In this document: one piece after another, positions 6,034 through 52,846 of the stretch
Layout: the number at the start of each line of letters is the position of its first letter
Position numbering within the stretch: the stretch's first letter is position 1
From: a virus
Taxonomy: Duplodnaviria > Caudoviricetes
Length of the DNA stretch: 53,735 nucleotides
Virus record (IMG/VR): IMGVR_UViG_3300023223_000794
Span: 1 to 53,735 of that record
Strand: one strand, 5' to 3'
Notes under the pieces: model-generated
What the model was told of the DNA's origin: nothing
Seen by the model: only the letters and a program-made list of their open reading frames with translations
Database searches by the model: none
Position numbers and translations under genes: made by a program

Positions 6034-7311
6034 ATGGGACTTCTAAATTTATTCCAGTTCATCGAAGATCGGGTTACTAAAGAGCCAGAGCGAAACCCTG
6101 ATTTCCTGGACTCCGAAGGTATAGTGAACCCTGGAGAACTTCCATTCCTGGGTGGTTCAAGGCGCGGGCGAGAGCTTAATCGTTCTGTGCTTCTAGATCG
6201 GGCAAAGCGTGCACCCGATCGTGCGATTTCTCGTACAGGGCAGACTGGATCTGCTAGTAATATAGCTCTTCTAAAGTTCCGCAAAGAGGATAGAGACGAT
6301 CAGAAAAAGGCACTTGCACTTGGCCGCATTTTCCTCCAACAACAAGGTGCAAATCTCACACAATTTAGTAATGATGAGATTATCGATGCGTCATTTAATC
6401 CAGCTGCCGAAGAGCTAGCGTTAAGAGGACTGTCTGCCCGTGCAGGTTCACGGGAACAGCTTGCTCTCTTAGGTCAGGACGTTGAAGGAAAAGTTGTTGC
6501 TGAGTTTAACAGCGCGTTCGGTGCAACTAAAGCAGAAATTGCAGATCAAGTTCATGCAGAAAAGATTCGTAAAGATACACAACAAGCAGCTTTACTCGCC
6601 GCCAATACAGCTGTTCAACGAAGTTTTGATGAAGCCATAAATATCGAAGGTACTCTCGACCAAGAAAAAAGACTAGCTGCGGCAGAGCTTACCGCCGTAC
6701 AAGGTACAGCATCTCGGGCATTCAATGTATTTCCAGGGACATTTAATCCTGGCGCAGGCGGTTTACTCCCAGGGCAACAAGTTCAACAGCCGGTGCAAAA
6801 TATTCGAACTGAAGAGGTCACACCTGTCACAGAAAACGTTGGCAGATTCATAGGGACAGGGATAAATCAGCAGATTCTTGAGAGTCTTAAAGCCACTCCA
6901 ACAGGAGTACGTATAGGTTCTGATAATATCGATGCAGTAATAAATGGCTTGGCAGTTGAAAGTGGTGCTATCGCAGCAAGTGCTGGACGTTTTACAGGAG
7001 AGCCAACGTTACAACCAGGCTTACAAGGTGGTGGAGTAAGGCAAGTAGTTAATTCCGCACTTCTTGCTCCAATTCCTGAGTCTGCAGTTGGCTCAACACT
7101 TGCTCCAATCCCCCAAAGTACGCCAGCGCAAGCACCACTTTCCCTTCTAGATCCTACAGCACTTCAACGTCCATTGTCAAGTCAGGCTGTAGAGAAAGAC
7201 ACAGAAGGTAATGTAGTTAAAACTCGATCATTCATCCGTACGTCGGATGCAATCTGGCTCTTTAACTCTGAGAATAGTCAGTTTGAGATCTTTAAACGTA
7301 TAAAGAATTAA
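6034..7311 (+). CDS. Putative internal virion protein
   Basis: 425 aa Ala/Gln-rich; second of three genes of increasing size, as in podovirus ejection modules. Confidence 0.5.
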   Translation: MGLLNLFQFIEDRVTKEPERNPDFLDSEGIVNPGELPFLGGSRRGRELNRSVLLDRAKRAPDRAISRTGQTGSASNIALLKFRKEDRDDQKKALALGRIFLQQQGANLTQFSNDEIIDASFNPAAEELALRGLSARAGSREQLALLGQDVEGKVVAEFNSAFGATKAEIADQVHAEKIRKDTQQAALLAANTAVQRSFDEAINIEGTLDQEKRLAAAELTAVQGTASRAFNVFPGTFNPGAGGLLPGQQVQQPVQNIRTEEVTPVTENVGRFIGTGINQQILESLKATPTGVRIGSDNIDAVINGLAVESGAIAASAGRFTGEPTLQPGLQGGGVRQVVNSALLAPIPESAVGSTLAPIPQSTPAQAPLSLLDPTALQRPLSSQAVEKDTEGNVVKTRSFIRTSDAIWLFNSENSQFEIFKRIKN

Positions 7312-7898: not shown

Positions 7899-10800
7899 AT
7901 GCCACCCCAAGCTATTACTTCTGTTGACGCTGACGAACTCATGGTTCTTCTAAATTCTGGTGACATTAAGCCTGAGCAGCTCGAAGATCCACCAGAAACT
8001 TCCACGCCGCAGAGTATTTCACCACAGGCATCGTTAGAACTCTTAGCTTCTGAGTCAGCTAGAAAAGCCTCAGACGCACGCCAAGAGCACGCGGTCATAA
8101 TGGCTCGCAATGAACAAAAAGTAAAACGTACAGCTCTCCTCCAAGAACAGAGAGAACTTACCCGTCAGCAGAATCAGGTAGATCGAGCGGAGAATGCTGG
8201 TGTTATACCTGTTACTGTTGCAGAAGGTTTTGGGAACTTCGGTGGTGCTTTGATGAAACCTCTGAAAACTGTCGCACCTCGAGTTACTCCAAATGAAGTT
8301 GCTCATGCGTTTAACATACGTACTGACTTTTCCCGTAACGTAGCTGCGCCTTTTATTAATGCCTTTTCTACGGTAGCCAACGAATCTACTTCACCTATGA
8401 TGATCGTTGGTTCTCTTGCGGGTATTGGTCCAGGTAAGGCTGCGGTAGCTGGGGTGATGAAAACAGCCGGTGCACTTACAGCACTTACAGTTCCTTCTCG
8501 CGTAAAGGAAACTGCTATTGCTGCTGGTCGTGGAGATGTTCCTCAAGCCATAGAGAATGCAGTTATTGGAGGGCTAGAAGTTGCTGGAATTGGTGCAGCT
8601 TTTAAGACTGGAAGTATCTTGAAACGCCAGGCGCGTGAAGCTTCTTCGGAAACTCCCGGCTTGTCCGTGCAAGGTAAGGAAGACTTTAAGCGAATGGAAG
8701 AAGAAGTTTTTGATGAGCTTGACACAATCCTCAAGGAAAAAGTAGATGAGAAAACCACCTTTGAAGAGATCGCTCAAATGATTGAAGTTACCATGGGTCC
8801 AGATGCAAGAGTGCATATCCCTGGGGCGTGGAATAAAATGCTTCGAGCAAAACGGCCACGCTATGATCTTGATAATACCACAGAGCTTATTGTAAATGTA
8901 GCGAAAAATGCTCCAGATGCTAGAGCAAAACAGATTGCAAAACCAACGCCTAAGTCATTCGTCGGACGAGCAAACATCGTCGAGCCTGCTGTAAATAAAA
9001 TCGCGCGCCTCGGTGCTGCCGGGAAGCATCTCGCAGTAGCCTTCATTGAACATGCACGGATGAAAGCACGACTTCGTGGTCCTCTAGAAACTAAACCTTT
9101 TTTGGTAATAAAGAAAGCTAAGCTCTCTAAGGACGAGAAAGAAACTCTAGAGTTTTTCCTCTGGGAGCAGCAGAATAAAGACCAGGGAAATCGTAGTATA
9201 CTCTGGGAAGACTTATCCGATGCCCAAAAGAACGTAGCAACTGAACTGCGGAGTTACTTTCACGGAACTCAGGCTGCACAAAACTCTCCAGAGCTTAACA
9301 TTGAAGTCGATAATCGGCGAGCGCGTTCAGATCCAAACTATTTTCCTGGGATTGTCTCACGTGAGGTTTTACTAGAGATTACTAATAGTCCTGAGGCTCC
9401 ATTTGCTCTTGCACGAAAAGAGGATTGGATTACGCATACAATGGAGCAGGCTCAGCGGCGTGTAAACGCTACGCGTGGAGCGAAAGAAAGTGTAGGTCCT
9501 GGAGTAACAGCACCGCAGCCAGGTCCTGGCACTTCTGATCCTTTACTTACACGCGAAGGTGCTACTAGTGCTTACGAAGAGTTTATTACCGGAATCTCTA
9601 AGACTACAAGGCAAATCATGGAAGAGAATCCAAACAACCCGCAAGCACAACAACAAGCTTTCGCAGCTATTCGTCAAGAACAAGGTCTAGGTATTCCCTG
9701 GAGTTGGACGGACAAAGACCTTTCTTCTGTAGTTACTCGTTATGGGCGTCGTGTTGGAAGTGATATGGCTTTTGATCTAGCCTTTCGTTCAAATCCTGTT
9801 GCGCGAACTGTCTATGGGCTACAAAAACCTGGCGCGAATAACCCAAAGAATGTGCCAGGAACAGATATCCCAATTCAAAGGTCCTTTGCGGCAAATCCTA
9901 TGGTGAATAAGCTTTACGCACAAGAAATTGCTGATCTTGATTTTGCGTCACCAGGGACAGCCGAGGCCATCGCTACCGAAGCCGGCGTACTCCTCAAATC
10001 CGGGCTACTTACTATTGCAAAGTCCGGTATCCGAGATCTTCTTTCAAATCAGGCAAACATGGCTCCGCATATTCGTATGTCAGATGTGGAGAACTTTCAT
10101 AAGGCTACGAAAAACCTTAGCTTTAATGCTGTTCGTGCGTATGAGCTTGGATTAGGTAAAGAATCTATGCTAGCGCTCACTGATCCTACGCGCGGTCTTC
10201 CAGGTATTGCGCTTCGTATGCGTCAAGCTGCTGAGTTTCAGCAGAAGTGGGCTGGTCGAACTCTTTATGAGAACGGTATTCGTACCCACACCCTTGGGAT
10301 GGCTGATCTAGTTAGTATGGACTTCCGCGCACAGATGTTCCGCGCACCCAATGGCGAGATTCGTGGTCCTAAAGAAGCTTTAAGGTTCATGGACGATTTT
10401 GGCGATACAGTTAACTGGCAACCTTACATTGGACCCGAAGCTCAGGCCATGCCACCAAGGCTCCAGGATGAAATGTCTGCTAGATTTGTAGAATCTATGC
10501 AAGGAACTTTTGATTTACGCCAGGTACCTACGGGAGTTCTGGACACACGTAGTTTCATTCGAGGATTTACTACCTTTATGAGCTATCCCATCGGTCGAGG
10601 GAACGAGTGGAATAATAAAGTTCTTGAACCATTGCTTCGTGGAAATGCTACTCCGTTCTTTAAATCCACCTTGGCTGCTCCTTTGGCGGGGGCTGCAACT
10701 CTTGCCTACAACGAGATGCTTTCAGGTCTTCGCTCCAGTGGTGCAACTTTTGAAGAGGCTATGGATCAAGATGAACTTGATGATGCGATGTTCCGACTGG

Positions 10801-11624
10801 CTTATCTTGCAACAGTATCAGGGGCTATGGGTATTCAAGCAGACTATGCGCTAGCTGGTTATAAAACCTTCCTTTCTGATCAGAATCAAGTTCGTGGTGC
10901 ATTGCCTTTCTTTCCTCTTGCAGACCTCGGTGCACAGATGGTTAAAACTACAGCGGATGCTCAGAAAGCTCTTCGAGATGGCGTTTCACCCTTTAACGTA
11001 GCATTACAGACCGCAGAACAATATGCCCGTGGTTGGAACCAATACGCAAACGTTATCTTTGCAGCTACAGCACGTCCAGCAGAGCGGTCACGCGTTAACC
11101 GTAACCGGGATATTGTCGCATTCCAATCTCTTAACAACGAGCCCCCAGATCCACGGTTTAACTTTTCCCCTTACTTTGACCCCAACATCCGTAAGTATAA
11201 ACGTTCTGAAGATCCTGCCGAGATTGGGAAGCTTCTACCTCCACTCCTCTCTCGTATAGTCAGAGACTATGCAGAAGATCCTATAGCATTACAGGCCCGG
11301 CTTCAGTCATTAAACTCCGAGTCAGTAACCTACCTACCAGATAGCACCGTGGATGAACTACTTTCTTTGAAGAACATGGAATTCATTTCCTGGAAAGCTC
11401 GTACAGATTCTCCAAAACATGCCGCACAACTTCTGGTTAACCAATACTCAGGGAATCTAGTTAACGGAGTTAAGAATGAGATCGTTGCAGGATTCAGCGA
11501 TCTTGTTGGAAACGATTTGGATTTGTTTGATCCACAGTTCATACCTAAAGGTAAAGCCCCAAGAGATGCGGCGCAGCAAGTATTTGAACAACCCACTACG
11601 CCACCACCGCCTTTATTTCGTTAG
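7899..11624 (+). CDS. Large internal virion / DNA ejection protein
   Basis: 1241 aa, helical, with a hydrophobic Ala/Gly segment; last gene of the late arm. Confidence 0.6.
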   Translation: MPPQAITSVDADELMVLLNSGDIKPEQLEDPPETSTPQSISPQASLELLASESARKASDARQEHAVIMARNEQKVKRTALLQEQRELTRQQNQVDRAENAGVIPVTVAEGFGNFGGALMKPLKTVAPRVTPNEVAHAFNIRTDFSRNVAAPFINAFSTVANESTSPMMIVGSLAGIGPGKAAVAGVMKTAGALTALTVPSRVKETAIAAGRGDVPQAIENAVIGGLEVAGIGAAFKTGSILKRQAREASSETPGLSVQGKEDFKRMEEEVFDELDTILKEKVDEKTTFEEIAQMIEVTMGPDARVHIPGAWNKMLRAKRPRYDLDNTTELIVNVAKNAPDARAKQIAKPTPKSFVGRANIVEPAVNKIARLGAAGKHLAVAFIEHARMKARLRGPLETKPFLVIKKAKLSKDEKETLEFFLWEQQNKDQGNRSILWEDLSDAQKNVATELRSYFHGTQAAQNSPELNIEVDNRRARSDPNYFPGIVSREVLLEITNSPEAPFALARKEDWITHTMEQAQRRVNATRGAKESVGPGVTAPQPGPGTSDPLLTREGATSAYEEFITGISKTTRQIMEENPNNPQAQQQAFAAIRQEQGLGIPWSWTDKDLSSVVTRYGRRVGSDMAFDLAFRSNPVARTVYGLQKPGANNPKNVPGTDIPIQRSFAANPMVNKLYAQEIADLDFASPGTAEAIATEAGVLLKSGLLTIAKSGIRDLLSNQANMAPHIRMSDVENFHKATKNLSFNAVRAYELGLGKESMLALTDPTRGLPGIALRMRQAAEFQQKWAGRTLYENGIRTHTLGMADLVSMDFRAQMFRAPNGEIRGPKEALRFMDDFGDTVNWQPYIGPEAQAMPPRLQDEMSARFVESMQGTFDLRQVPTGVLDTRSFIRGFTTFMSYPIGRGNEWNNKVLEPLLRGNATPFFKSTLAAPLAGAATLAYNEMLSGLRSSGATFEEAMDQDELDDAMFRLAYLATVSGAMGIQADYALAGYKTFLSDQNQVRGALPFFPLADLGAQMVKTTADAQKALRDGVSPFNVALQTAEQYARGWNQYANVIFAATARPAERSRVNRNRDIVAFQSLNNEPPDPRFNFSPYFDPNIRKYKRSEDPAEIGKLLPPLLSRIVRDYAEDPIALQARLQSLNSESVTYLPDSTVDELLSLKNMEFISWKARTDSPKHAAQLLVNQYSGNLVNGVKNEIVAGFSDLVGNDLDLFDPQFIPKGKAPRDAAQQVFEQPTTPPPPLFR

Positions 11625-15056: not shown

Positions 15057-15236
15057 TTAATAGTTTAAACCTTCTAAGTAATTTAAACGTTCGAATTCTT
15101 GCTCTTTTTTATATCTTATATAGGCTTCTTCATTAGCTTTTCGTTCAAATTTCCAACAGACAGAGCAAAAATAACTATTCCCTTGTAATTCGTCTTCTTT
15201 TGTTAATGATATTCCACAATTATTACAACTATTCAT
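15057..15236 (-). CDS. Small Zn-finger protein
   Basis: CNNC...CSVC; probable start 15236 overlaps the polymerase stop (ATGA). Confidence 0.5.
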   Translation of the reverse strand: MNSCNNCGISLTKEDELQGNSYFCSVCWKFERKANEEAYIRYKKEQEFERLNYLEGLNY

Positions 15237-16222
15237 AATTTTAACCTTTCCATTTTCTTCACATTTCTTCCCCACTCTGCTTCGGTTTTCATTTGAAACT
15301 TTCTGTCCTTGTGCTCAAACTTAATACTCATAAACTCACTTAACTTTTCCGCCACTTCCTTGACATCTCGTTCCGGTGCTTGCATCAATACGCTGTCATG
15401 CTTATTACTTAGTACGTCCCACTCTACCTTCCCCTTGTCTTCCACATACTCTTGCATTTTTGTCAGCGCTATATGTGTAATACATCCTACAGTACTTTGT
15501 GGACAGTATGAATAATAGCTCTTGATTTTTTCTTGATTCAAATGTCCTGTGATTTTAATCGGATACCCGAATAAATTCACTATTTGCCCTGTGTCAAACG
15601 CCTCACGACGCACTGCGAAATGCCAGCATTTAATCTCTGGAAACAGTGTATGATATATCCTTAGAAACCTGCGTGCTTCGTCTAACGCCAAGTAAACCCT
15701 GCCCTGACTTTTTATCAAACAGTTCATTTGAAAAGTCTGCGCTTCCATGCCATAGTTAGCAGCATGACAAATCATCTTCCCTAGATCATAATATCTAAAC
15801 TCACTAGAATTCGGAAGATACAGTTCTTTAATTAGTTCGTCCAGCGTGGTCCAGTTCTCAGACTTCGCTAATTCTCCTGGTCTACAAGACAAATACCGCG
15901 CTTCAAACAGCTCGGGACTTACTTCCAACTCTTTCGCCCACTCTTTCGAGAACACATGCATTGCTACGAATACGTGTGATTTTACTCCTGCCTGGAATAA
16001 TTCCAAAAACTGCCCAGGCGGTGCAATGTTTGCAACAATAAATGCTTCGGCTCCTGCTTGATCTACGTTTACGAATACTTTATCTTCGTCAGGAATCCAG
16101 AGTGACACCATAGTCTGCGAAGGGTTCTGAACATTCCCTCCCTGCCGAAGTATCGTTTTTCGAGAAGACGCACGATACGTATCAGTTCCAGACAAGGCAT
16201 AGTTAGTTGAGATGCGGATCAT
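15233..16222 (-). CDS. polA: Family A DNA polymerase, C-terminal (palm/fingers) part
   Basis: TDTYRASS..NVQN, motif A VNVDQAGAEA, motif B GKMICHAANYG, PQSTV, motif C NKHDSV. Confidence 0.9.
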   Translation of the reverse strand: MIRISTNYALSGTDTYRASSRKTILRQGGNVQNPSQTMVSLWIPDEDKVFVNVDQAGAEAFIVANIAPPGQFLELFQAGVKSHVFVAMHVFSKEWAKELEVSPELFEARYLSCRPGELAKSENWTTLDELIKELYLPNSSEFRYYDLGKMICHAANYGMEAQTFQMNCLIKSQGRVYLALDEARRFLRIYHTLFPEIKCWHFAVRREAFDTGQIVNLFGYPIKITGHLNQEKIKSYYSYCPQSTVGCITHIALTKMQEYVEDKGKVEWDVLSNKHDSVLMQAPERDVKEVAEKLSEFMSIKFEHKDRKFQMKTEAEWGRNVKKMERLKL

Positions 16223-16757: not shown

Positions 16758-17102
16758 TTAGTTGTTGTTAATATCTAGAGTCATTGCGGTAACCCGCATT
16801 ATATGATCTAGAAAAGCAGACTTAATGTAATTAATTATATTTCCAGTGTTCTTTGTTGTAATCATCACGCTTCCTGGAAATGGTTGTGTCCTTTCCATGC
16901 AAGTGATTAATATGCGGTCAGTACAAGCATCATCAGGATTACTTAATCTGATATGTATAGTATAATGACATTCTAAGAAACTGGTAAATAATAAAGTTTT
17001 ACCTCCATTGTTTATGTATTCTATGCAATCGGCCGCACGATAAAGCTTTAAAGCCTTTAACTGCGCAGTCAGGGTTCTTACGTCTTCTTTAGTTAAGTTC
17101 AT
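16758..17102 (-). CDS. Hypothetical protein between the polymerase halves
   Basis: 114-aa ORF; ATGA overlap with the polymerase N-terminal gene. Confidence 0.6.
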   Translation of the reverse strand: MNLTKEDVRTLTAQLKALKLYRAADCIEYINNGGKTLLFTSFLECHYTIHIRLSNPDDACTDRILITCMERTQPFPGSVMITTKNTGNIINYIKSAFLDHIMRVTAMTLDINNN

Positions 17103-18667
17103 AGCTCATCCCAATTCATTGGCTCAAATTTTAACTCTCCTGCAATTTTTGCATATTTCCTATAAGCCAAACACACATCAATCACAGCATTCTTGTCATG
17201 TGCAAGCTTTAGTTTATACATAGAATCTTTCGCTAGACTTGCCAATCCAGTTTTCTTTGATTTCATCACTATAGGATAACATAATTCATCATGGAAATAC
17301 TTAGCTAATTGTGGTGGACTACCAGGATTTATATCATAACCTACTAGCTCTTTTAGCATTCGAAGATAGAAGTTTAACCTTACGTCAATATCCTTTTTAA
17401 GCTTAAGCATTCGTTCTTCGTCCACTTTAATCCCTGTAAGCTCTACAATAATATATGGTCGGATACTTTTAGACACCTGCTCGATACTTGCCTTCACTCC
17501 AGGCCTTATGCTAGCATACGTATCAATTCCTTCTTTAATTAGCATCATAAGTCTCACATCTTTCGCACAATACATCCACAGTTGTTCTTGTTGCTTCGTA
17601 TTGTGTGGGTTAAAAATACCTTCGTCTTTATGAAACGTTTCCTCAGTCCAATAACTTCCGCAGTGTCCAAGACTTCGCTCTATGAATGGAAAACATCGAT
17701 GATGTGCAAGCATAGTATCGTAAAGCTTACGCCCTAGCGGTAGATGGTATTTTCGCGCCAGCACTAAGTAATCAAAACTTTTGCCGTTATGTGCCACAGT
17801 TTGATTTCGAGACATTGCAAAGACCAATGCCCGCAGAATTCTATTCAATGCTGTCGGTGAGTAAACCCCTTCGTACCGAAAGTTCACTAAAGGCACTACG
17901 TATACGTTTTTTGTGTCAAATCCAAAACCAAAGCATGACATCTCAAGCGTCGGCGGCATAGTCTCTATATCCAGGAACAAATCCCTGCCTTCGTTCTGAC
18001 GGAGCACTTGCTCTACAAGTTCTAACGTCGGCACAAGATGGAATTGAGTCTTTACTTCAGGTAGTAACCCTCTGGTAGCCCATTTTCTCGCACGCAGCAT
18101 GTCAGACTTAAACCAAAACCTGTAATTCTTTCTTTGTGTTTTGCCGTGTCGCCGTTTTTCATCCCCGACTTCATCTTTATTGGAGGCTTCATGGCTGGCG
18201 TAAGGATTAAATCTAGCTTCATAATCCACCTGGTCAAAACAATCTTGGTAAGCGAAAGTAGAAGTACAGATAATATCTGTAGTATCCGATCGAATAATTC
18301 CAGTTATTTCTCTCATTCCTGTTATATACTTACACACCTTTGGAGTTCCTCTAGCTTCTTGGAGTAAGTAATCAGTATCCGACGTCTTTATATAAAAGTT
18401 GTGAGCTTTCTCACCCAAAGCTACGATTACTTTAGTCCCCGACCGAATTATTCCAGTATCTCCAAGTATTCGAACTTCTGTATGGTCTAACGAGAACTTG
18501 TTCCCAAGGCAAGATTTTACAAATTTTCCAGCAGTTCCGCTAAGTAACTGTTTTTGGTTATCAAATCTTGATGGATGTGATACTACTAGAGTAATCCCAC
18601 GATACTCTTTTGTAGGATTCATTCGATATGGATAAGGTTTAATCATGGTATTAGACTTATAGGGCAT
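17099..18667 (-). CDS. polA: Family A DNA polymerase, N-terminal part: degenerate UDG-like domain, 3'-5' exonuclease and thumb
   Basis: Exo I LDIET, Exo II AHNGKSFD, DTMLAH, Exo III YCAKD; thumb GIKVD..INPGSPPQL..LAYRKYAK; N-terminal SGTAG..VIVALGEKA resembling family 4 UDG. True start may be a downstream Met. Confidence 0.88.
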   Translation of the reverse strand: MPYKSNTMIKPYPYRMNPTKEYRGITLVVSHPSRFDNQKQLLSGTAGKFVKSCLGNKFSLDHTEVRILGDTGIIRSGTKVIVALGEKAHNFYIKTSDTDYLLQEARGTPKVCKYITGMREITGIIRSDTTDIICTSTFAYQDCFDQVDYEARFNPYASHEASNKDEVGDEKRRHGKTQRKNYRFWFKSDMLRARKWATRGLLPEVKTQFHLVPTLELVEQVLRQNEGRDLFLDIETMPPTLEMSCFGFGFDTKNVYVVPLVNFRYEGVYSPTALNRILRALVFAMSRNQTVAHNGKSFDYLVLARKYHLPLGRKLYDTMLAHHRCFPFIERSLGHCGSYWTEETFHKDEGIFNPHNTKQQEQLWMYCAKDVRLMMLIKEGIDTYASIRPGVKASIEQVSKSIRPYIIVELTGIKVDEERMLKLKKDIDVRLNFYLRMLKELVGYDINPGSPPQLAKYFHDELCYPIVMKSKKTGLASLAKDSMYKLKLAHDKNAVIDVCLAYRKYAKIAGELKFEPMNWDEL

Positions 18668-24437: not shown

Positions 24438-24697
24438 GGATTCTTACTTTCATCGTTTTCAGTATTTGCATTATTTGCTAGTTTCTTGAAATTTACTATA
24501 TCTATTAAATTTAGCATAGCTTTAAGCAGTGTTATTACACTTAAAATATAGCCAGGTGGACAAAACATTTCCGTAGTGTTGGCTTTAAGATCTAGCCTCA
24601 AGAGTAATTTACGTCCTTCATAAACTTCAACTATATTGTTAATTGGCGTTAAAGTAATACTTTTTTCGTTAAATTTTTTGTAGAAATCAATAGTCAT
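24434..24697 (-). CDS. Hypothetical protein
   Basis: 87 aa; ATGA coupling. Confidence 0.55.
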   Translation of the reverse strand: MTIDFYKKFNEKSITLTPINNIVEVYEGRKLLLRLDLKANTTEMFCPPGYILSVITLLKAMLNLIDIVNFKKLANNANTENDESKNP

Positions 24698-25278
24698 ACG
24701 CTTTTCACTAAATCTATTCTAATCTTTCCCTCTGTTGTAACACTCACGTTTATCTTAGTAGAATCTTTACATAGCAACCGAACTTGCTCTAAAAACATAT
24801 CACTAACGAGAACGAGTTCAGTAAAATCTCCTGGTTCGCCTTCTTCAATAAACATTCCCAACCCTTCTAACGTAGCCTGTGTGTCTAACTCCATGGCTGA
24901 AAACTCTCCTGCATCTAGTTCTTTTTGTAATCCTTCTGCGCCTTCGTTAAGCCTGTCAATAGGATCTAATGTTACGCTTCCTAGCATATCTTTATTGGGA
25001 CCACGCTTAACCCTACCGTCAGGGTTTAACCTTACACGCACTGTATTGGAACCCTCTTGATGTATAGTATATTGCTCCCAAATGGTATACCATTTAGAGG
25101 CTTTGTTATTCTCTGCTAGCCATTCAATTCCTGCGCGTATTTTTTGTGTAAAAGAATTTTGTTGTAATCCAACGTCAGAGGGATGCATTTCAAATTCAAT
25201 AAGCTTTTCATTTAACACCCGTTCCAGTATTTGCTGAACTTCTTTTCCATTTCTTTCAGTCTTATATCCACCTGTCAT
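24694..25278 (-). CDS. Hypothetical protein translationally coupled to the sigma54 activator gene
   Basis: 194 aa; ATGA overlap at 25275-25278. Confidence 0.6.
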   Translation of the reverse strand: MTGGYKTERNGKEVQQILERVLNEKLIEFEMHPSDVGLQQNSFTQKIRAGIEWLAENNKASKWYTIWEQYTIHQEGSNTVRVRLNPDGRVKRGPNKDMLGSVTLDPIDRLNEGAEGLQKELDAGEFSAMELDTQATLEGLGMFIEEGEPGDFTELVLVSDMFLEQVRLLCKDSTKINVSVTTEGKIRIDLVKSV

Positions 25279-26186
25279 GTCAACTCTCCTTTCAATAGAA
25301 AATTTATATACATCTCGCGTAACTCTCCTTCAAGTTGTCTAACATTCCCTTTCTTTACAAGGGTTGCCCACGTGTTTTTATCCCAAGCTGTTTCATTAAA
25401 CACTTTACTGAACTCTGAACCCCAGTCGTTTAATGCGATAATATGTTCAGCGATTGGAGGTATATCAGACATACGGTCTACGAGTGCCGGAATTTGAATT
25501 TGAATCCTTGCTAGCCGATGGTATAAGTCTTCCCTTAGTATAGGGTGTTCAGTACTAAAGACTCTTGAAGTTGCTGCTAAAAATCTACAGTTTGCAGTTT
25601 CATGTTGGTCTGAACCTACAGGTTTAAAAGTCCTATCTTCTAAAACTCTCAAGAGCTTTACTTGTATAAGCTCTGGTAAATCCCCAATTTCATCAAGAAA
25701 CAGTGTCCCATCATCAGCCGCACGTATTAATCCCTTACGATCGTTCACAGCACCCGTAAATGATCCCTTTATGTGTCCAAACAGTTCACTTTCGATTAAA
25801 GTTTCTGTCATTGCGTTTGCGTTACACGCTATGAATTGTCCAGTTCGTTCACCATGCAACGCGCGGGCTATGATTTCTTTTCCAACGCCTGTAGGTCCTT
25901 GGATAAATACAGAGTCTTCCATCGCACTAGCTAGCGTAACTTTTGCTTTCATGTCTATGCATAGCTGACTCTGGATTGTTATAAAGTTTTCTAATTCGTC
26001 TAGGACTTTACAATAATGATATTTATTTAACTTAACTTTCATTATCTCACTACAACTGTTTGCGAGAGATAGTGAACCAAACACTTCAGTTACAGTATCT
26101 TGTTCATGGTCTAATTGATAGATAGTTCGAAAATATCCTAAGATATCCTTTCCTATAATTCGTTGGGTAGGGTGTGTTTTATTCAT
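25275..26186 (-). CDS. Sigma54-dependent transcriptional activator (bacterial enhancer-binding protein AAA+ domain) lacking an HTH
   Basis: GPTGVGKE, ARALH, IESELFGH-IK-GSFTGA, GTLFLDEIGDLP, QVKLLRVLE, AAT, REDLYHRL, GNVRQLE; ends 17 aa after GNVRQLE. Confidence 0.93.
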   Translation of the reverse strand: MNKTHPTQRIIGKDILGYFRTIYQLDHEQDTVTEVFGSLSLANSCSEIMKVKLNKYHYCKVLDELENFITIQSQLCIDMKAKVTLASAMEDSVFIQGPTGVGKEIIARALHGERTGQFIACNANAMTETLIESELFGHIKGSFTGAVNDRKGLIRAADDGTLFLDEIGDLPELIQVKLLRVLEDRTFKPVGSDQHETANCRFLAATSRVFSTEHPILREDLYHRLARIQIQIPALVDRMSDIPPIAEHIIALNDWGSEFSKVFNETAWDKNTWATLVKKGNVRQLEGELREMYINFLLKGELT

Positions 26187-26213: not shown

Positions 26214-28118
26214 TTATGGGCAGCGGAGGTAATCAGTAGTTATAAGCGGTTTAAACTCTAGTAGTTTAGGTTCGGCAGGGAAAGTAAGTAACTTAAGCTC
26301 TAGCTCTGGCTTTAACTCTATAACATCTTCCTCAACTGCAGACTCCACAAATGCAGAGTTAGCTAATTCTTCCCGTTCGGCTTTAAAATCTTCCGTTATT
26401 TCCTCCTCAGTGGCCGCACGAAAGTTTTTAAGGTCTTTGGCATTTATTTTTCCGTTCGTAGCTTCTACGCCTCGCTTGATTAGCAATTCATTCCAGTCTT
26501 CTTTTGTTCGAATTACTTCTTTTAAACATCCTAATTTTGGTTTCATGTTATCATGCACTTCCTCTTCGACAGTCCCGGTGTAATAAATCATAGACTGATA
26601 TGCATCTGAAATAGAATTATACCGTAGCGCACGACCAAACACTTGAACTACTTCATACGCGTCGTAAGATGGTGTTCCGTTCAGTACACGAGGGCGAGAA
26701 TCTACATGCTCGTGATGAAGATCTAGACTAGCGCCGCCAGCTTTTGCTGTGAATAGGCAAGTGCTTCGGCCACCTTGTTGATATTCGTCAATGACATCTT
26801 GTTGCCTTTTGTCTCCCATAGGCTTAAAGAAAGCTTTAAGTTTTTCCCATTGCTTTTCTGTGGCAGTAATCTTATCATACTCTAGATGTAATGGTTTATG
26901 TTGAATAAACTCGTTTAAGTCTGCTACGCCTCCCCAGATTAGCGTAATATGCTCTAAAGGTACACCATGTTTACAGTATAATTCGATTACACAACGGATA
27001 ATAGTTCCTTTGAAATTCGTTGCAATGAGTGGATACTTGTCATTCTCTAGAGCTGTTATGGTTCGTTCTACTAGGATAGAGCATCGTACTAATTCTCCAC
27101 GTTCTCTGAAAATGTTCTTTGCTACCATCATTGCCATTCCAGAGCCTGGTGCACTACGATCAATTTTCCGTAGCCTTTCGAGATAGTCATCCCATGCACG
27201 GGTAAACCAAGCTTTGTGACCAGAGGACTGAAATTCAAGTAACTCTGCCCGATTATAGGCCTTACACTTCGGCCGAGCATTCTTTAATCGTATGATGTTA
27301 GACCCTAACCAGTCTACTATACGAGCCATGCCGGCCTGGTTAGGAATCGTAGGGTCACTTTTGTAAAGTTCTTGTGCCCGTTCCATTAGTTCCTTTGGCC
27401 TGAACATCTGAGTGCTAAGAATAAAAGTCTCTGCGTGGGCGAGATGAACCCATGGAGTAGCTGTTACCATCATCTGAAGAAATTTAAAGTTCTTGGTTTT
27501 AATTCTTCGGGCCATCTCTGTAAAATTCCTGGCAATTTGGGTCTGTTTACTATTCGCATTTCTTAAGTCATGCGATTCGTCTATAACAAGAATCTGCGGT
27601 GCAAACATAGGATTCCAGACAGGCATGATATAAATATCTCCAGCATGAACAAAGGTTTCCCAAGAGATGAACTTCTTTCCGGCTCTGTTTCGTAGTTCAC
27701 CCCAAGTCATGATAGCCACGGAACCGCCTGACTCTACAGGTAAACCAAATTTGTTCTTTAATTCTCTGTAAGTTTTGATCTTTGCTTTTTTTCGGACTAC
27801 GATTACGACGGCCGCGCTTCCTAGAGGTTTCTTAATGAAACCTGAGTCGTAAAGTTCTCGAAGCCATTCCCCAAAAACGATTGTTTTTCCACAACCTGTT
27901 ACACCTTGGACTAACGCAGAAAAGCTCTTTCCTCGGCTAAAATGCTCTGCAATAGAATTCAGTCCAGTTTTTTGAAAATCATGTGGTCCTCCATAGTTCC
28001 TTCGAGTCTTTAATACAATTGCCGGCGCTTTCTCACGGAACATCTTAGCTCCAATGATATCGTTAATCAGCTTTGTAGAAGTCTGGGAAGGTAAATCTTC
28101 GAAGGAAGTGATACTCAT
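26214..28118 (-). CDS. Superfamily 2 helicase (C-terminus resembles strawberry-notch-type helicases)
   Basis: GVTGCGKT, VIDESH, TATP, AGGASLDLH..RPR, QVFGRALR. Confidence 0.85.
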   Translation of the reverse strand: MSITSFEDLPSQTSTKLINDIIGAKMFREKAPAIVLKTRRNYGGPHDFQKTGLNSIAEHFSRGKSFSALVQGVTGCGKTIVFGEWLRELYDSGFIKKPLGSAAVVIVVRKKAKIKTYRELKNKFGLPVESGGSVAIMTWGELRNRAGKKFISWETFVHAGDIYIMPVWNPMFAPQILVIDESHDLRNANSKQTQIARNFTEMARRIKTKNFKFLQMMVTATPWVHLAHAETFILSTQMFRPKELMERAQELYKSDPTIPNQAGMARIVDWLGSNIIRLKNARPKCKAYNRAELLEFQSSGHKAWFTRAWDDYLERLRKIDRSAPGSGMAMMVAKNIFRERGELVRCSILVERTITALENDKYPLIATNFKGTIIRCVIELYCKHGVPLEHITLIWGGVADLNEFIQHKPLHLEYDKITATEKQWEKLKAFFKPMGDKRQQDVIDEYQQGGRSTCLFTAKAGGASLDLHHEHVDSRPRVLNGTPSYDAYEVVQVFGRALRYNSISDAYQSMIYYTGTVEEEVHDNMKPKLGCLKEVIRTKEDWNELLIKRGVEATNGKINAKDLKNFRAATEEEITEDFKAEREELANSAFVESAVEEDVIELKPELELKLLTFPAEPKLLEFKPLITTDYLRCP

Positions 28119-28570: not shown

Positions 28571-28642
28571 TGGGGCGTCGGAGAGGACTCGAACCTCTAA
28601 TGTGGCTTTTAGGCCTAGTTTACCTGTTAACATACCGACTCC
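28571..28642 (-). tRNA. tRNA-like gene with truncated anticodon arm (identity undetermined)
   Basis: GGAGTCGG TA TGTT-AACAGGTA-AACT A GGC-CTAAAA-GCC ACATT AGAGG-TTCGAGT-CCTCT CCGACGC C CCA: canonical T arm and encoded CCA; anticodon arm only 3 bp plus a 6-nt loop. Confidence 0.75.
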
Positions 28643-28869: not shown

Positions 28870-29121
28870 TTAATTTTCTCCGCATGTGATTAGTTTAGCT
28901 CCAGCTACTATAGCAGCTTGGAATTCATCGCGAGTAACAAAGTCAACAAGGATATTACTGTCGCGATCATATATATAATCACCAAGTTCCTGATCAGTGT
29001 CTGAGGAATTTAAGTATATTCCATCAAATCGCGTTACGTCTTCATTGACTAAACGGAAGCGCACTATGTCATCCATGGATTCCCATATTATCGCTGTTTT
29101 TATTGTTTCTATATCAGGCAT
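28870..29121 (-). CDS. Hypothetical acidic protein
   Basis: 83-aa ORF on the locally coding strand. Confidence 0.6.
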   Translation of the reverse strand: MPDIETIKTAIIWESMDDIVRFRLVNEDVTRFDGIYLNSSDTDQELGDYIYDRDSNILVDFVTRDEFQAAIVAGAKLITCGEN

Positions 29122-29131
29122 AATTTATTAG

Positions 29132-29165
29132 AAGGTTAAAAGGTTAAAAGGTTAAAAGGTTAAAA
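29132..29165. repeat. Tandem repeat (AAGGTTAA)x4
   Basis: Read directly; intergenic, just upstream of the 29121 start codon. Confidence 0.9.
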
Positions 29166-31553: not shown

Positions 31554-31949
31554 TTACTGTGCTATTGGCACGTAATTTTCTAGCAATTTTAATTGTTCAT
31601 CCCAAACTTCTATTTGTCCTTCGAGTTTCTTTCTTAATTCCACCGTGCAACTACTACAATCCTTTCTTGTTTTTCGAATCTCCCGTTTTAGTATATCTCC
31701 AAGCACAACTGCTACAATGTGTTCGAATGTTGACCCCGACGGGCTAACTGTTGGTTCCTTCGGATCTGCTTTTGCTCTTTCCACGCTTTCTTTTAACTCC
31801 TCTGCTGTTGTGGCTTCTAAAATCCGTTTATATAACACATCTAACATCATTTCTTCTTTTGTGTCTGGTAATACAAGTGGGCTAATAACAAAAGCCCGTA
31901 TTGCTACCTCAAGTATCGCTGCTTCGTTCGATGTTAGTGTAAGAGTCAT
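31554..31949 (-). CDS. Hypothetical early protein (start revised to 31949)
   Basis: The track start at 32027 overlaps a sigma54 promoter; the in-frame ATG at 31949 lies ~50 nt after the predicted transcription start. Confidence 0.55.
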   Translation of the reverse strand: MTLTLTSNEAAILEVAIRAFVISPLVLPDTKEEMMLDVLYKRILEATTAEELKESVERAKADPKEPTVSPSGSTFEHIVAVVLGDILKREIRKTRKDCSSCTVELRKKLEGQIEVWDEQLKLLENYVPIAQ

Positions 31950-32010
31950 ATCAAGTTCCGTTGTTCTGCGAGGTTCTGTGAGAGCCCTCGGCTCTGCTAC
32001 CCCTATAGAA

Positions 32011-32026
32011 AGCAAGTCTTGTGCCA
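32011..32026 (-). promoter_or_regulatory. Sigma54 (-24/-12) promoter
   Basis: Minus strand TGGCACAAGACTTGCT; exact spacing; faces the early genes. Confidence 0.8.
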
Positions 32027-32399
32027 TATCGCCCGCCCGCTTGCCTTTCTCCTTAAAGGCGCTCTTCTTGTTTTAGCACAATACCTGGTTTCTCTTTAAA
32101 TACTTTAACTCTTAAATTGCATAGTTTACGTAGTAGAAATTTTTAGTCTGGGGTACACCCCCTGGGACGTAAATTGTGCATTTAGTTTAACTCTTATTTA
32201 AAGTTTTTTCATGTTCTGTGTATTGTGCTAGGTCTTAGTAGCGTTAAAGTTGCTAAAAAAGAGTAAATAGAGCCTATTAGTTTAAATAGGAGTTAGTCAT
32301 ATTAGTGTAAAAGTTTAATTTCAATATAGACATATATTTACACTCCATAAACTCCACTAACTAACAGTTAAAGTATATTGGAGGAATCGTGGTTAAGTG

Positions 32400-32678
32400 C
32401 TAAGTCTTAAAGTTTAAATCACCGCGTACTGCATCCTCTATCAGCAAGAGGATATTTATAGTTTCACTTTCCGTAAAGGTGCAGTCTTTATGTCCCGGCC
32501 ATAGTAATGCAATCTTTTTGATCTTGGCTCGTAGTTCTATTTTAGTCTGTTCTGCACGTTTTGCTAAGTGCTCTAGTGCAGCTTTATTATATTTGTATTC
32601 CTGTAAGAGAAGTTCTTGTGCTGCAATGCGAGCCTCTAGATCTTCTATGTATTTCAACGCTTGTTCTAGGTCCATCAT
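32400..32678 (-). CDS. Hypothetical coiled-coil protein, first gene of the minus arm
   Basis: 92-aa ORF starting ~34 nt after a sigma54 promoter. Confidence 0.6.
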   Translation of the reverse strand: MMDLEQALKYIEDLEARIAAQELLLQEYKYNKAALEHLAKRAEQTKIELRAKIKKIALLWPGHKDCTFTESETINILLLIEDAVRGDLNFKT

Positions 32679-32711: not shown

Positions 32712-32727
32712 AGCAATTACCTTGCCA
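32712..32727 (-). promoter_or_regulatory. Sigma54 (-24/-12) promoter, leftward
   Basis: Minus strand TGGCAAGGTAATTGCT; intergenic, at the head of the minus arm. Confidence 0.75.
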
Positions 32728-32797
32728 ATTGCGCGTGGTCTGTTGTTTCTATTCCTTTAACGTTAAATTCCTTTACGTTTCCTTAGCGCCCGCGCCT

Positions 32798-32819
32798 ATG
32801 CGTCATCTTCCCCACGCAT
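32798..32819. promoter_or_regulatory. Candidate enhancer palindrome ATGCGT-N10-ACGCAT
   Basis: Perfect inverted repeat between the divergent sigma54 promoters; extra half-sites TGCGT 32821, GCGCAT 32833, ACGCAT 32858. Confidence 0.4.
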
Positions 32820-32974
32820 TTGCGTCATACTCGCGCATCCGTTGGGTGTATCCATCCACGCATACAGTTTAAGAATAGGGGGTGGGGGGCCAAGAATCCG
32901 ATTAGATCCAAGAACATAGCAACTCGTAAAATTTTAAAATCTGAAATCTGAAACTAAACTTAGAAATCTAAATA

Positions 32975-32990
32975 TGGCATAGAGAATGCT
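32975..32990 (+). promoter_or_regulatory. Sigma54 (-24/-12) promoter, rightward
   Basis: TGGCATAGAGAATGCT at the head of the late arm; shares TATGGCAT-N6-TGCTAT with the capsid promoter. Confidence 0.75.
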
Positions 32991-33760: not shown

Positions 33761-34240
33761 ATGAGCACGAAACTGGAAACTGAAGAGTCTCGCATAGGAA
33801 CTATGAATGCAGTGGAAACTGTAGTTTGTGAACGTTTCGAAACAGGCGATGATACACTCAAAGAAATTGCCGCAGACTTGTCTTTACCAGAAGTACAAGT
33901 TGTAGCGATTCTATCAAAGTTTTCTCCACAATTTCGTGATCACTTGCCGGTGGAAGGTGAAGGAAATGGAGAAGTTCTGATTCGGGATTCAGTAATTGTA
34001 GCAAACCAAGGTGAATTTGATAAACTACGAAACCATGCACATGATTTAGCAATATCTGCGGAGAGTGAGGCAGTTCAGTGGAGTGCGACAAGATATCTCT
34101 TAGATGAAGTAAAGGGCCGAAACGATCAGAAAGAAGATAACGGTAGAACTCAACTTAACGTACAGTTTCAAATAATTGCTGCAAGAAAAGAGAATACAGA
34201 AAAACTCATTAAACAGCAATTAGCAATAACAACAGGATAA
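33761..34240 (+). CDS. terS: Putative terminase small subunit
   Basis: N-terminal HTH (TLKEIAADLSLPEVQVVAIL), SEAVQWSATRYLLD helix; upstream of TerL. Confidence 0.6.
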   Translation: MSTKLETEESRIGTMNAVETVVCERFETGDDTLKEIAADLSLPEVQVVAILSKFSPQFRDHLPVEGEGNGEVLIRDSVIVANQGEFDKLRNHAHDLAISAESEAVQWSATRYLLDEVKGRNDQKEDNGRTQLNVQFQIIAARKENTEKLIKQQLAITTG

Positions 34241-39699: not shown

Positions 39700-39713
39700 T
39701 TTCATGGGCACTA

Positions 39714-39729
39714 TGGCATGATTCTTGCT
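39714..39729 (+). promoter_or_regulatory. Sigma54 (-24/-12) promoter for the major capsid gene
   Basis: TGGCATGATTCTTGCT; intergenic, ~100 nt upstream of ATG 39832. Confidence 0.85.
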
Positions 39730-39831
39730 ATAGTATAGACAGTCACTACAAGGATTGGGCTACCATTTAGACTAATTGTCACTAATTTTGCATTGGGCAG
39801 TGCTACTGATGTAAACTTAACTCTTAGACTT

Positions 39832-41121
39832 ATGGCAACAATAGCAGTTCCTAGTATTGATCAACCAAGAAATATTGAGATTCAATTCTCGATAGAAGAT
39901 AGAGAGCGATATAATACGCTACCGTTCTATTTTGCAAAATTTCAAGTGGATGATATGCGCTTGAATTCTGTGTATGCAAAGATGACGCGTAAAAGACGAT
40001 GGCAACCAAATGAAGGTCCGACAATGACTGCGGTTAAGAAAGCACGTTCACCTTTGATTCGTCAAAATGCATTCCCAGTCGGTGTTCAAAGTGAACCATT
40101 GATTGATACTTACGATGTGACTGAGGTGGCGAAGCGCGCGAATGTACATCGCCAGAACTTTCAATCGCCAGTATTTAAATTCGGTCCGCATTTTGAAAGT
40201 TTCTTTGCAGATAATATTCAACCGAATGTAGATAACATTATTACTCAGATTCGGATGTTCCGGGAGTTCTTTCTTCGGACAAGGATGTTTCATAAAGCTC
40301 CGTATATTTATCTTCCTGATTCAGTGGATAGACTTTATGCTGCACCTAGTACTGAAGGTGCTGCGGATGGTTCTGTTGGAAAGACTACGGACTGGCTTCA
40401 AGCTATGTCAACGCAAGTCGGTGATCCAGGAAATCTTTCGCTGAATACTGTTTATCAGACAGCACAAGCAATGTCTACAGACATTGGTGCGCTGCCGTTT
40501 AAGCCTGGTGGAGATATTGTGAATTCAAACGGTCTTAAGGACAAGTATGTTCTGATTACTTCGGAAGAGGCTTATATGCAGTTTAACTTTGATCCTTTTC
40601 GCTTGGAAAATCGAGAACTTTCTTTGGATGTAGTTACAGATAATTTTAAAGGTGATATTTTTGGTCGAGTTACTTGTATGACAGAGACGCATCCTTTGCG
40701 CATGTTGAATGATGGAACTTTTCCAGCACCGGAAACTCGGATTGAAGAGTCGGCAGGAGCGCCGGATCTTATTGGCGAAACGGTTCCAAATCCTGCATAT
40801 GTTACAGCTCCTTGGGAAATTGCGCTTATGTTTGGTGCCGATTCCTTCGAGTCTTTTGAGGTTGGTCCTCCACCAAAACACTTCTCGTCGAACACTGCGC
40901 CTAGTAAGCAGAAGTTTAATGCGATGCGGTGGAATGGTGAGGTTCGCATGATTGATAATATGATCATACCTGATGGTTCTGGCGGCTATGCTACGAATGA
41001 GTGGGGTGAGTATCTCAAGTTAATCGCTGATGTTACAATTGGTGCAATTGCAGTAAGAGAATTGAACGTAGTTCCTATCTTATTCAAGCGTATTAGAGGC
41101 GTTGAAAATTCCATTGCATAA
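39832..41121 (+). CDS. Major capsid protein
   Basis: 429 aa from ATG 39832; follows portal and scaffold; own promoter; KYVLITSEEAYMQF..D P-domain-like segment. Confidence 0.75.
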   Translation: MATIAVPSIDQPRNIEIQFSIEDRERYNTLPFYFAKFQVDDMRLNSVYAKMTRKRRWQPNEGPTMTAVKKARSPLIRQNAFPVGVQSEPLIDTYDVTEVAKRANVHRQNFQSPVFKFGPHFESFFADNIQPNVDNIITQIRMFREFFLRTRMFHKAPYIYLPDSVDRLYAAPSTEGAADGSVGKTTDWLQAMSTQVGDPGNLSLNTVYQTAQAMSTDIGALPFKPGGDIVNSNGLKDKYVLITSEEAYMQFNFDPFRLENRELSLDVVTDNFKGDIFGRVTCMTETHPLRMLNDGTFPAPETRIEESAGAPDLIGETVPNPAYVTAPWEIALMFGADSFESFEVGPPPKHFSSNTAPSKQKFNAMRWNGEVRMIDNMIIPDGSGGYATNEWGEYLKLIADVTIGAIAVRELNVVPILFKRIRGVENSIA

Positions 41122-50222: not shown

Positions 50223-50738
50223 ATGAATTCTGAAGATGGCGAAGGGGGCCAAAGGGGAATAGAAGAAAATCATGCATCACTAGTCGTTGACTTAATGGTA
50301 AGAAAAGGCTATCCGGTAGTTCAACCAAGTCATGAATCGCACAAAAACAATTTCTTTAAATTTACAGTAATTTCCTTTGGCTTTATCCTAGGTCTACTCT
50401 TAGTTTGCAATTTAAAGATTGTCTCACAGTGGCGAATAACAATCGATGAAGATTTAAAAACCGTAGATCAAAAGTTAAAAGCTTCCCTGATCGTACCGCT
50501 TCTGTTACACTCGAATGTAACTAAAAACACTGCGATATTAAATGGCACGAAAATTGCTGTAAGTAGTTTAGAGAAGGCGAAAAACGAAAACACTATTCGA
50601 ATAAATAACTTGTATATGATGCTTGAGCAAGTGCAATTTGATTTGAAAACCCTCAAGAGTGAAAATCTTATACTCCTTGATTCGATGGTAAATGGAAATA
50701 ACGAAGTAGTAAGAACCCCAAAGAAAGAAAAATTATGA
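50223..50738 (+). CDS. Membrane-anchored coiled-coil protein
   Basis: TM segment FTVISFGFILGLLLVC followed by coiled coil. Confidence 0.55.
   Translation: MNSEDGEGGQRGIEENHASLVVDLMVRKGYPVVQPSHESHKNNFFKFTVISFGFILGLLLVCNLKIVSQWRITIDEDLKTVDQKLKASLIVPLLLHSNVTKNTAILNGTKIAVSSLEKAKNENTIRINNLYMMLEQVQFDLKTLKSENLILLDSMVNGNNEVVRTPKKEKL
50543..50558 (+). promoter_or_regulatory. Sigma54 (-24/-12) promoter, internal to a CDS, facing the tail genes
   Basis: TGGCACGAAAATTGCT, a full match to TGGCACG-N4-TTGCW. Confidence 0.65.
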
Positions 50739-52351: not shown

Positions 52352-52846
52352 ATGAGAGCTAATGAAGTAATTACTTTAGAAGCATTTAGTGATACGACAG
52401 CTTCAGATGCTAGTGGAGCCCATGCTTCGTATATATTTCGTCGATGGGATATTACGTTGAAGGCCCCTTTTCGATTGTACAGAATACCGAAGCCTATTGA
52501 CGTAACATTTATTCTTTCTGTAAGGGCTGCTGGAACTGGCCCTGTTTCTGCAAGATATATGCTCTGGGAAGATGAAGCTGCTCGGATGCCTTCAGATGCT
52601 ACGTTATATAGGAGTGAGAAACTTCCAGCAGTGGCAACCTTTGAAGCCTGGACAATTGTCGACCAGACTACTCCAGCTTTAGCAGAAGATTTGAACCTTC
52701 GTACAGGGTTACATGCAGATGACATATCTTGTGATGCAGATGACGAGTTAAGTACAGCAGCTACGATTGTTAAACTATACGCTGAGCTTCCTTGGCTTAA
52801 TCCAAATGCTGGGGTACCTTTAGTCTTTAACGGAGCCTATGCTTGA
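52352..52846 (+). CDS. Hypothetical protein in tail region
   Basis: 164-aa ORF, tightly packed. Confidence 0.55.
   Translation: MRANEVITLEAFSDTTASDASGAHASYIFRRWDITLKAPFRLYRIPKPIDVTFILSVRAAGTGPVSARYMLWEDEAARMPSDATLYRSEKLPAVATFEAWTIVDQTTPALAEDLNLRTGLHADDISCDADDELSTAATIVKLYAELPWLNPNAGVPLVFNGAYA

Follow-up and report, generated by a model that had tools for sequence, protein, structure and literature searches.

We analysed the virus record IMGVR_UViG_3300023223_000794 over its entire length of 53,735 bp (the window), with particular attention to an open reading frame (ORF) at 25275..26186 on the minus strand, whose 303-residue product consists of the AAA+ domain of a bacterial enhancer-binding protein (bEBP), and to the sigma54-type -24/-12 promoter motifs of the same genome. 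The record represents a complete virus: it is rated 100% complete and carries an exact terminal repeat of 144 bp. Its phage hallmarks comprise genes for a terminase, a portal, an N4-type capsid protein and an ejection-protein-like product. One set of genes is read leftward, between about 32.7 and 11.6 kb, and the other rightward, starting at about 33.0 kb, crossing the end of the record and continuing to 11.6 kb. The leftward block encodes replication functions: a primase-helicase, a family A DNA polymerase in two ORFs, a Sak4-like annealing protein, an exonuclease and a SNF2 helicase. The activator ORF lies within this block, directly after the gene for the SNF2-type helicase (26214..28118, minus strand; matched by the DNA helicase families phrog_62 and phrog_16).

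The activator matched Pfam family PF00158 (Sigma54_activat) over residues 72-231 with an E-value of 3.9e-49 and 167 bits, against a cut-off of 20.2 bits, while no helix-turn-helix (HTH_8), receiver (REC), GAF or PAS domain was among the nine Pfam families listed for it. Every motif of a bEBP core could be located. On the minus strand, the AAA+ alpha/beta subdomain (25488..25991) contains Walker A at residues 97-104 (25875-25898), ESELFGH at residues 132-138 (25773-25793), the GSFTGA loop at residues 141-146 (25749-25766), Walker B (FLDEIG) at residues 163-168 (25683-25700) and REDLYHRL at residues 218-225 (25512-25535), and the helical AAA+ lid subdomain (25278..25487) contains GNVR at residues 280-283 (25338-25349). 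By bEBP nomenclature, GSFTGA is the sigma54-contact loop, REDLYHRL the arginine-finger stretch and GNVR sensor II. The F and T of the bEBP loop, GAFTGA in its usual form, are essential. The GSFTGA form is not a defect, given that 110 of the 120 similar proteins listed carry it (window protein included), most of them full-length GlrR-type regulators.

An AlphaFold2 model built on 35 relatives reached a predicted local distance difference test (pLDDT) score of 84 and a predicted template modelling (TM) score of 0.80. It is confident from about residue 55 to residue 300 and ends in four lid helices (residues 235-252, 256-265, 270-276 and 282-298). Foldseek matched the model over about 240 columns to the AAA+ domains of FleQ, NtrC4, NtrC1, FlrC, LuxO, ZraR and PspF, with target-normalised TM scores of 0.74-0.78 for FleQ, NtrC1, NtrC4, FlrC, LuxO and PspF; FleQ, NtrC4 and NtrC1 ranked highest. 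The best sequence match in the PDB was FlrA (3.9e-43). Because the protein ends 20 residues past sensor II, it has no room for an HTH. At the other end, the N-terminal extension (residues 1-65; 25992..26186, minus strand) matched no family, and residues 1-53 were modelled as low-confidence short helices with pLDDT below 50. The ORF is thus a complete sigma54-activator AAA+ domain without a sensory or a DNA-binding domain. An initial annotation, made by reading the letters of this DNA, had described a complete AAA+ core with all of these motifs and no C-terminal HTH, and had named a profile search and a structure prediction as ways to check it; both bear the description out. It had also given the protein an N-terminus of about 85 residues unlike REC, GAF or PAS. 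The lack of resemblance holds, while the length is closer to 55-70 residues.

When single proteins were used as queries against IMG/VR, neither the bEBP nor the terminase returned a close relative. A profile made from four short homologues identified 210 IMG/VR stretches encoding relatives, of which 80 loci were kept, many from 47-56-kb contigs. Since many of these are near-duplicates, they were dereplicated to 34 loci (70% protein identity; 608,682 nt). We aligned 35 family members and compared 13 genomes, namely the window and 12 fully fetched relatives. All 35 aligned members matched PF00158 and none matched HTH_8, REC (Response_reg), GAF or PAS among the 16 Pfam families listed. Residues K103, D165, E166, R224 and R283, as well as G141, T144, G145 and A146, are invariant in the 35 relatives, and R218 and F143 are nearly so. 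Their N-terminal regions range from 0 to about 130 residues and are unconserved apart from an L..FIT.D motif just before the AAA+ core. A simple motif rule located the ORF in 70 of the 80 loci, and in 67 of these 70 it ends only 142-170 residues after the loop, a length that excludes an HTH.

Replication genes of the window are also conserved: an exonuclease gene is shared by 69 of the 80 loci and a SNF2 helicase gene, a neighbour in the same block, by 56, the latter also by all 13 compared genomes. Twelve protein families are common to the 13 genomes, including the activator, the portal, the capsid protein and a large ejection-type protein. Given its presence in 13 of 13 genomes with shared core families, the activator is a core gene of a large, diverse and uncultivated clade of phages of about 50 kb rather than a stray acquisition. 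When the family profile was compared with 1.84 billion cluster representatives (50% identity), 113 of the best 150 were at most 360 residues long. A quick unrooted tree placed the 35 phage proteins and their 36 nearest bacterial counterparts, a narrow bacterial sample, on opposite sides of one branch (Shimodaira-Hasegawa-like approximate likelihood ratio support 99). Neither a megablast search with 24 kb of the window nor a tblastn search with the capsid protein found a match in the GenBank phage collection; the DNA polymerase found only four matches there, at 21-24% identity, and the bEBP found 65 by tblastn, all below 60% identity. Among the 40 tblastn matches listed, those that could be judged were bacterial assemblies or unannotated fragments. 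The PHROGs family phrog_7998 already holds proteins of this kind under the label "function unknown".

We next consider the promoter motif. The sigma54 promoter consensus is TGGCAC-N5-TTGC, with the GG and GC doublets 10 nt apart. Allowing at most one mismatch and requiring the invariant GG and GC, we found six sites in the window where 1.2 were expected, a number that none of 200 dinucleotide shuffles reached; two sites are perfect (0.085 expected; 1 of 200 shuffles). The wrong spacers 1-4 and 6-10 gave 0-2 sites each. A position weight matrix (PWM) was then built from the relatives' loci only, so that the window lay outside the training set. It assigned 20.2-22.7 bits to four strong sites and lower scores to two weaker ones, and the five window sites of at least 15 bits are all co-oriented with the genes. 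Of the control genomes, neither lambda nor N4 (first 50 kb) contains a site that reaches 15 bits.

The best site in the window (39714..39728, plus strand; 22.7 bits) precedes the major capsid gene, within the intergenic gap 39700-39831. The leftward block with the replication genes and the bEBP gene is headed by an intergenic, co-oriented site at 32713..32727 (minus strand; 20.4 bits), 34 nt before ORF 32400-32678. Further along, a perfect site at 32012..32026 (minus strand; 21.9 bits) stands at the end of a 372-nt gap. It overlaps the ATG listed first for ORF 31554-32027, a frame that may actually begin at M27 (31949). The other perfect site, at 50543..50557 (plus strand; 20.2 bits), is inside ORF 50223-50738 and 177 nt before ORFs leading to protein family f16 (52352-52846). 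The two weaker candidates are on the plus strand: one at 7089..7103 (16.1 bits), inside ORF 6034-7311 and upstream of an 80-residue ORF and the gene for the 1241-residue ejection-protein-like product, and one at 32975..32989 (14.6 bits, two mismatches), heading the rightward packaging and structural block. The initial annotation had counted five -24/-12 promoters; the sites are real and enriched, and they number four strong and two weaker rather than exactly five.

The same motif is enriched across the clade. The 80 loci contain 153 sites, compared with 38 expected from shuffles and 23-43 with wrong spacers. In the 34 dereplicated loci, the spacer of 5 yielded 93 sites (20 perfect) and other spacers 12-23 (0-3 perfect), so that only the correct spacer shows an excess, of 4- to 8-fold, and 33 of the 34 loci have at least one site. 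Of the 153 sites, 120 are intergenic, compared with 4-10 of 23-40 for four control spacers, and 91 of the 153 have an ORF start between -20 and +150 nt. Positions outside the search pattern are also biased in the 93 sites, in that T occupies -1 in 48, a purine (G or A) follows TGGCAC in 85 and T follows TTGC in 74, preferences that fit the sigma54 consensus. In 24 whole records, the pattern matched 190 times and its reverse 40 times. All 24 of these relatives have sites, and none has a Sigma54_DBD match. The initial annotation had held that its proposal would be refuted if related phages carried the gene without enriched -24/-12 motifs; the sites in 24 of 24 whole relatives and in 33 of 34 dereplicated loci leave the proposal intact.

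Orientation and position of the sites are conserved as well. Co-orientation with genes was found for 88 of 95 sites, and the most enriched oriented words in the intergenic DNA of the 13 genomes are pieces of sigma54 elements. In each of the 13 genomes, a site of 20-25 bits precedes the capsid orthologue, and the 13 aligned upstream regions conserve only the -24/-12 letters. Two contigs from metagenome-assembled genomes (MAGs; species genomes), found by capsid homology alone, both have a 24-bit site at the same place, bringing the total to 15 of 15 genomes or contigs. One of the MAG contigs also encodes a bEBP, in a frame of 253 residues, whereas the other bEBP frames of that MAG have 271-467; both MAGs carry rpoN. 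Other positions recur: the start of the packaging block, the f16 block, the block of f11 and the large protein, the block of the SNF2 and activator genes, and the gap right after the activator gene. Specifically, a site of at least 15 bits precedes the terS/terL block at the same place as 32975 in 8 of 12 relatives, sites precede the f16 block in relatives G004 and G014 (compare 50543 in the window), and the f11/BIG block is preceded by sites in relatives (compare 7089). The gap directly after the bEBP gene holds a strong site in 11 of 12 relatives, where it heads the f17, f18 and exonuclease genes.

Searches for other transcription machinery in the window found no match to Sigma54_DBD or Sigma70_r2, and none to T7-like RNA polymerase (PF00940), the last being a weak search since the control genomes lack the family and therefore gave no match either. 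The claim of the initial annotation that the phage lacks a recognisable RNA polymerase or sigma factor is thus upheld for sigma54, sigma70 region 2 and T7-like RNA polymerase. Sigma70-like sites are not enriched in the window (18 found, 23.5 expected), nor is the Bacteroidota-type -7 word (51 and 55), and no sigma70-like or other promoter word stands out in the intergenic DNA of the 13 genomes.

Two ORFs were considered in the search for such machinery. The first, at 33761-34240 (plus strand; 159 residues) just before the terminase gene and present in 11 of 13 genomes, has a Sigma70_r4-like HTH match of 14.3 bits. The match is below the cut-off, and we read the HTH as that of the small terminase subunit, which this ORF probably encodes, and not as part of a sigma factor. 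The second encodes the 1241-residue protein (7899-11624, plus strand). Full-length copies in its family range from 1015 to 2450 residues, and one 342-residue piece lies at a contig end. It was rejected as an N4-type virion RNA polymerase (best BLASTP E-value 0.15; hhalign probability 1.1%). The protein weakly matched solved phage ejection or internal virion proteins (8e-5) and had one Atlas neighbour cluster with LPD38.

Taken together, we consider it likely, judging from the comparison of sequences, that the phage supplies a minimal activator, an AAA+ domain with a short unstructured N-terminus, which works independently of enhancers and enables host sigma54-RNA polymerase to initiate at phage promoters, as the initial annotation had proposed. 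The activator would form the usual ring and bind ATP, and its GSFTGA loop would remodel host sigma54-RNA polymerase in closed complexes on the phage -24/-12 promoters. It would act from solution rather than from an enhancer. The promoters would serve three places: the block of leftward replication genes, the gene for the major capsid protein, and the tail or ejection-protein side; a weaker site precedes the packaging block. Lying in the leftward block downstream of sigma54 sites, with no terminator-like site on its strand in between, the activator gene would itself be under positive feedback. We infer ring assembly, ATPase activity, dependence on rpoN, timing and effects on the host. Given that it has no DNA-binding domain, the activator should also fire host sigma54 promoters, which is plausible by analogy with the engineered activator DctD250.

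Several observations weigh against this proposal. Enrichment in the window shows up only with the invariant GG and GC imposed: a loose search with two free mismatches gave 48 sites (37 expected; reached in 6 of 100 shuffles), and bare GG-N10-GC gave 220 (201 expected), neither of which is significant. Two of the six sites (49616 and 7089) and the strong site 50543 lie within ORFs as called by a longest-ORF heuristic, and site 49616 fits poorly outside the core (PWM score below 9 bits). PWM counts in the relatives are partly circular, although the counts by pattern do not depend on the matrix. After its bEBP gene the window has ORF 24694-25278 in place of the site found there in 11 of 12 relatives. 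Finally, the activator gene itself lies behind sigma54 sites and has no recognisable sigma70-type or other promoter motif.

Since the loop is self-reinforcing and the activator gene is itself downstream of sigma54 sites, ignition is needed. Candidates are a weak unrecognised promoter, host activators acting from solution, or activator packaged in the virion. A bolder version of the proposal, which we put forward only tentatively, is that the whole clade runs essentially its entire programme (replication, packaging, capsid and tail) through host sigma54-RNA polymerase, using one constitutive AAA+-only activator in positive feedback and no phage RNA polymerase, sigma factor or sigma70-type promoters. 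If true, the genome would remain transcriptionally dark until ignition, because a closed complex of sigma54 needs an activator to leave its silent state; expression would then be all-or-none, and induction of the whole host sigma54 regulon would follow as a by-product. The clade would represent a new class of phage transcription strategy and be restricted to rpoN-bearing hosts.

Alternatively, the protein could be a host-takeover or auxiliary factor whose main job is the host sigma54 regulon (nitrogen, envelope, motility), with phage genes transcribed otherwise and the phage sites secondary. The gene does lie among early and replication genes, and an AAA+ protein without a DNA-binding domain is promiscuous on host sigma54 promoters, as reported for DctD250 in passages of the study describing it (PMC3844500). 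We nevertheless regard this as very unlikely, given that the motif is enriched at the correct spacer only, intergenic, co-oriented and present before the capsid gene in 15 of 15 cases, and that intergenic DNA is enriched in no other promoter motif. This alternative denies only the role at phage promoters, and both effects may coexist. It is about equally unlikely, in our judgement, that the sigma54 sites are real and fired by host enhancer-binding proteins while the phage AAA+ protein titrates or blocks sigma54 or remodels another target. The first expression of the leftward block does need an activator other than newly made phage protein. Yet the window promoters share no enhancer-like upstream word (none of at least 9 nt is common to at least three of the six upstream regions), as expected for an activator without a DNA-binding domain; gene and promoters co-occur in all 24 whole relatives; and the catalytic and sigma54-contact positions, which an inhibitor would not need, are all invariant. 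That the record is a plasmid-like or chromosomal fragment and the activator a bacterial regulator truncated by an assembly or gene-calling error is exceedingly improbable: several GenBank phage-collection matches are bacterial assemblies filed as phage and the structural genes lack PHROG or Pfam matches, but the terminal repeat and completeness rating, the N4-type capsid, portal and terminase family with the ejection-protein-like gene, the same short architecture in 35 of 35 relatives and in most of the best cluster representatives, and a reading frame with its own stop codon and an unrelated ORF overlapping its end all speak against it.

Activation of sigma54-RNA polymerase by a phage-supplied AAA+ core, the reading we prefer, has partial precedents. 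The relevant section of a 2020 review presents FleT as the only known bEBP without both regulatory and DNA-binding domains (PMC7175178). Judged by domain description only, FleT resembles the phage protein in having an AAA+ sigma54-activator domain and neither a sensory nor a DNA-binding domain. In contrast to the phage protein, a core gene product of a phage clade with no DNA-binding partner identified, FleT is encoded on the chromosome, belongs to the flagellar system and acts jointly with FleQ, which binds DNA. Engineered AAA+-only activators, which include PspF 1-275 and DctD250, have the same domain content. According to passages of its description, DctD250 is constitutive, enhancer-independent and promiscuous on many sigma54 promoters from solution, and about 10-fold weaker than its enhancer-bound parent (PMC3844500). 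It thus acts in the mode proposed here for the phage protein, but is a laboratory truncation of a full-length regulator, whereas the phage protein is a natural, conserved form.

Natural HTH-less activators that act without an enhancer are also found in bacteria: the same section of the review lists Helicobacter FlgR and Chlamydia CtcC as group 5 bEBPs, which lack the DNA-binding domain only (PMC7175178). Both retain a receiver domain and are controlled by phosphorylation, unlike the phage family, in which Response_reg was found in 0 of 35 members. By sequence, the nearest relatives among the 120 proteins listed are response regulators of the GlrR/QseF type (JGI/NCBI names; 37-49% identity over 64-94% of the query). 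They have an AAA+ core with the same GSFTGA form of the loop, but are 430-470 residues long and carry REC and mostly HTH_8 too. Htm (Gp204), an AAA+ protein of an E. coli phage, is described in part of a preprint as having a bEBP-like structure, a distinct N-terminal domain and no GAFTGA loop or motif, and as proposed to act on sigma54-RNA polymerase; that part does not mention sigma54 promoters of its phage (bioRxiv 10.64898/2026.10.06.757011). The protein studied here, in contrast, has the full loop and its genome has the promoters. With phage N4 and the Schitoviridae, the window shares an N4 gp56-type capsid and, where the structural block ends, a gene for a large ejection-type protein, but a giant virion RNA polymerase was not found in the window.

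A full-text literature search, with most subscription journals and supplements outside its reach, turned up no phage activator bearing GAFTGA and no sigma54-driven phage programme; within that coverage, the search agrees with the initial annotation, which knew of no characterised phage that works this way. Known phage transcription strategies comprise, to our knowledge, phage RNA polymerases, phage sigma factors, sigma70 appropriators, antiterminators and clamp-coupled activation. The enhancer-dependent sigma54 pathway is used by none of these. The parts of the system (bEBPs and sigma54 promoters) are known; what seems new is the arrangement, with a phage-borne, stripped-down activator as a core gene and sigma54 promoters heading the main operons across a clade. 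Our findings would thus add a strategy of phage transcription that is clade-wide rather than a single case, as the 210 IMG/VR stretches suggest, and would multiply the natural examples of bEBPs without both regulatory and DNA-binding domains. They would also offer a rule for host prediction from sequence alone, namely that the host must carry rpoN, and compact, enhancer-free, orthogonal activator/promoter pairs for synthetic biology.

Other clues to the host come from the genomes themselves. Genes of the window and its 12 relatives are not preceded by a Shine-Dalgarno signal; positions -14 to -5 are depleted in G and the leaders rich in A, which hints at, without proving, a host with Shine-Dalgarno-independent initiation, such as a Bacteroidota-like one. 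The capsid-bearing MAG contigs are labelled Deltaproteobacteria and Terracidiphilus, labels that rest on binning and are weak evidence of the host. No tRNA gene was called in the window, and no Rfam family scored above its gathering score.

The structural proteins of the window had almost no matches in PHROGs and Pfam. The major capsid protein gene (39832..41121, plus strand; N4 gp56-like) has a listed ORF start at 39793 and a likely start at M14 (39832), a residue that is invariant in the capsid family alignment. Identification of the capsid protein rests mainly on a comparison in the ESM Atlas, in which its Atlas model matched N4-gp56 capsid clusters with query-normalised TM scores of 0.59-0.61. 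Our own model was of low confidence (pLDDT 51.9); its top-ranked PDB fold matches were all phage capsids, though weak (best E-value 1.3e-3), and the capsid profile found no match among PDB sequences. ORF 24694-25278, which overlaps the activator stop codon, encodes 194 residues, has no Pfam match and belongs to no recognised family.

Several minor features were noted in and beside the leftward block. The two ORFs of the family A DNA polymerase (15233-16222 and 17099-18667, minus strand) are separated by three small ORFs of 54, 99 and 114 residues, and relatives likewise have two PolA ORFs, either adjacent or separated by inserts. The divergent gap between the two blocks (32730-32960) has a high GC content, a run of G and several short words (ACGCA/TGCGT type) that recur, and could be an origin or operator region. 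Directly upstream of ORF 28870-29121, four head-to-tail copies of an 8-nt unit lie at 29122-29165, as read on the minus strand. Lastly, the gap before the SNF2 and bEBP genes contains a tRNA-like element (28574-28641, minus strand) that scored 27.5 bits against the Rfam tRNA model (gathering score 29), has a shortened anticodon arm and was not called by ARAGORN; it is possibly a decayed tRNA gene or the remnant of an attachment site.

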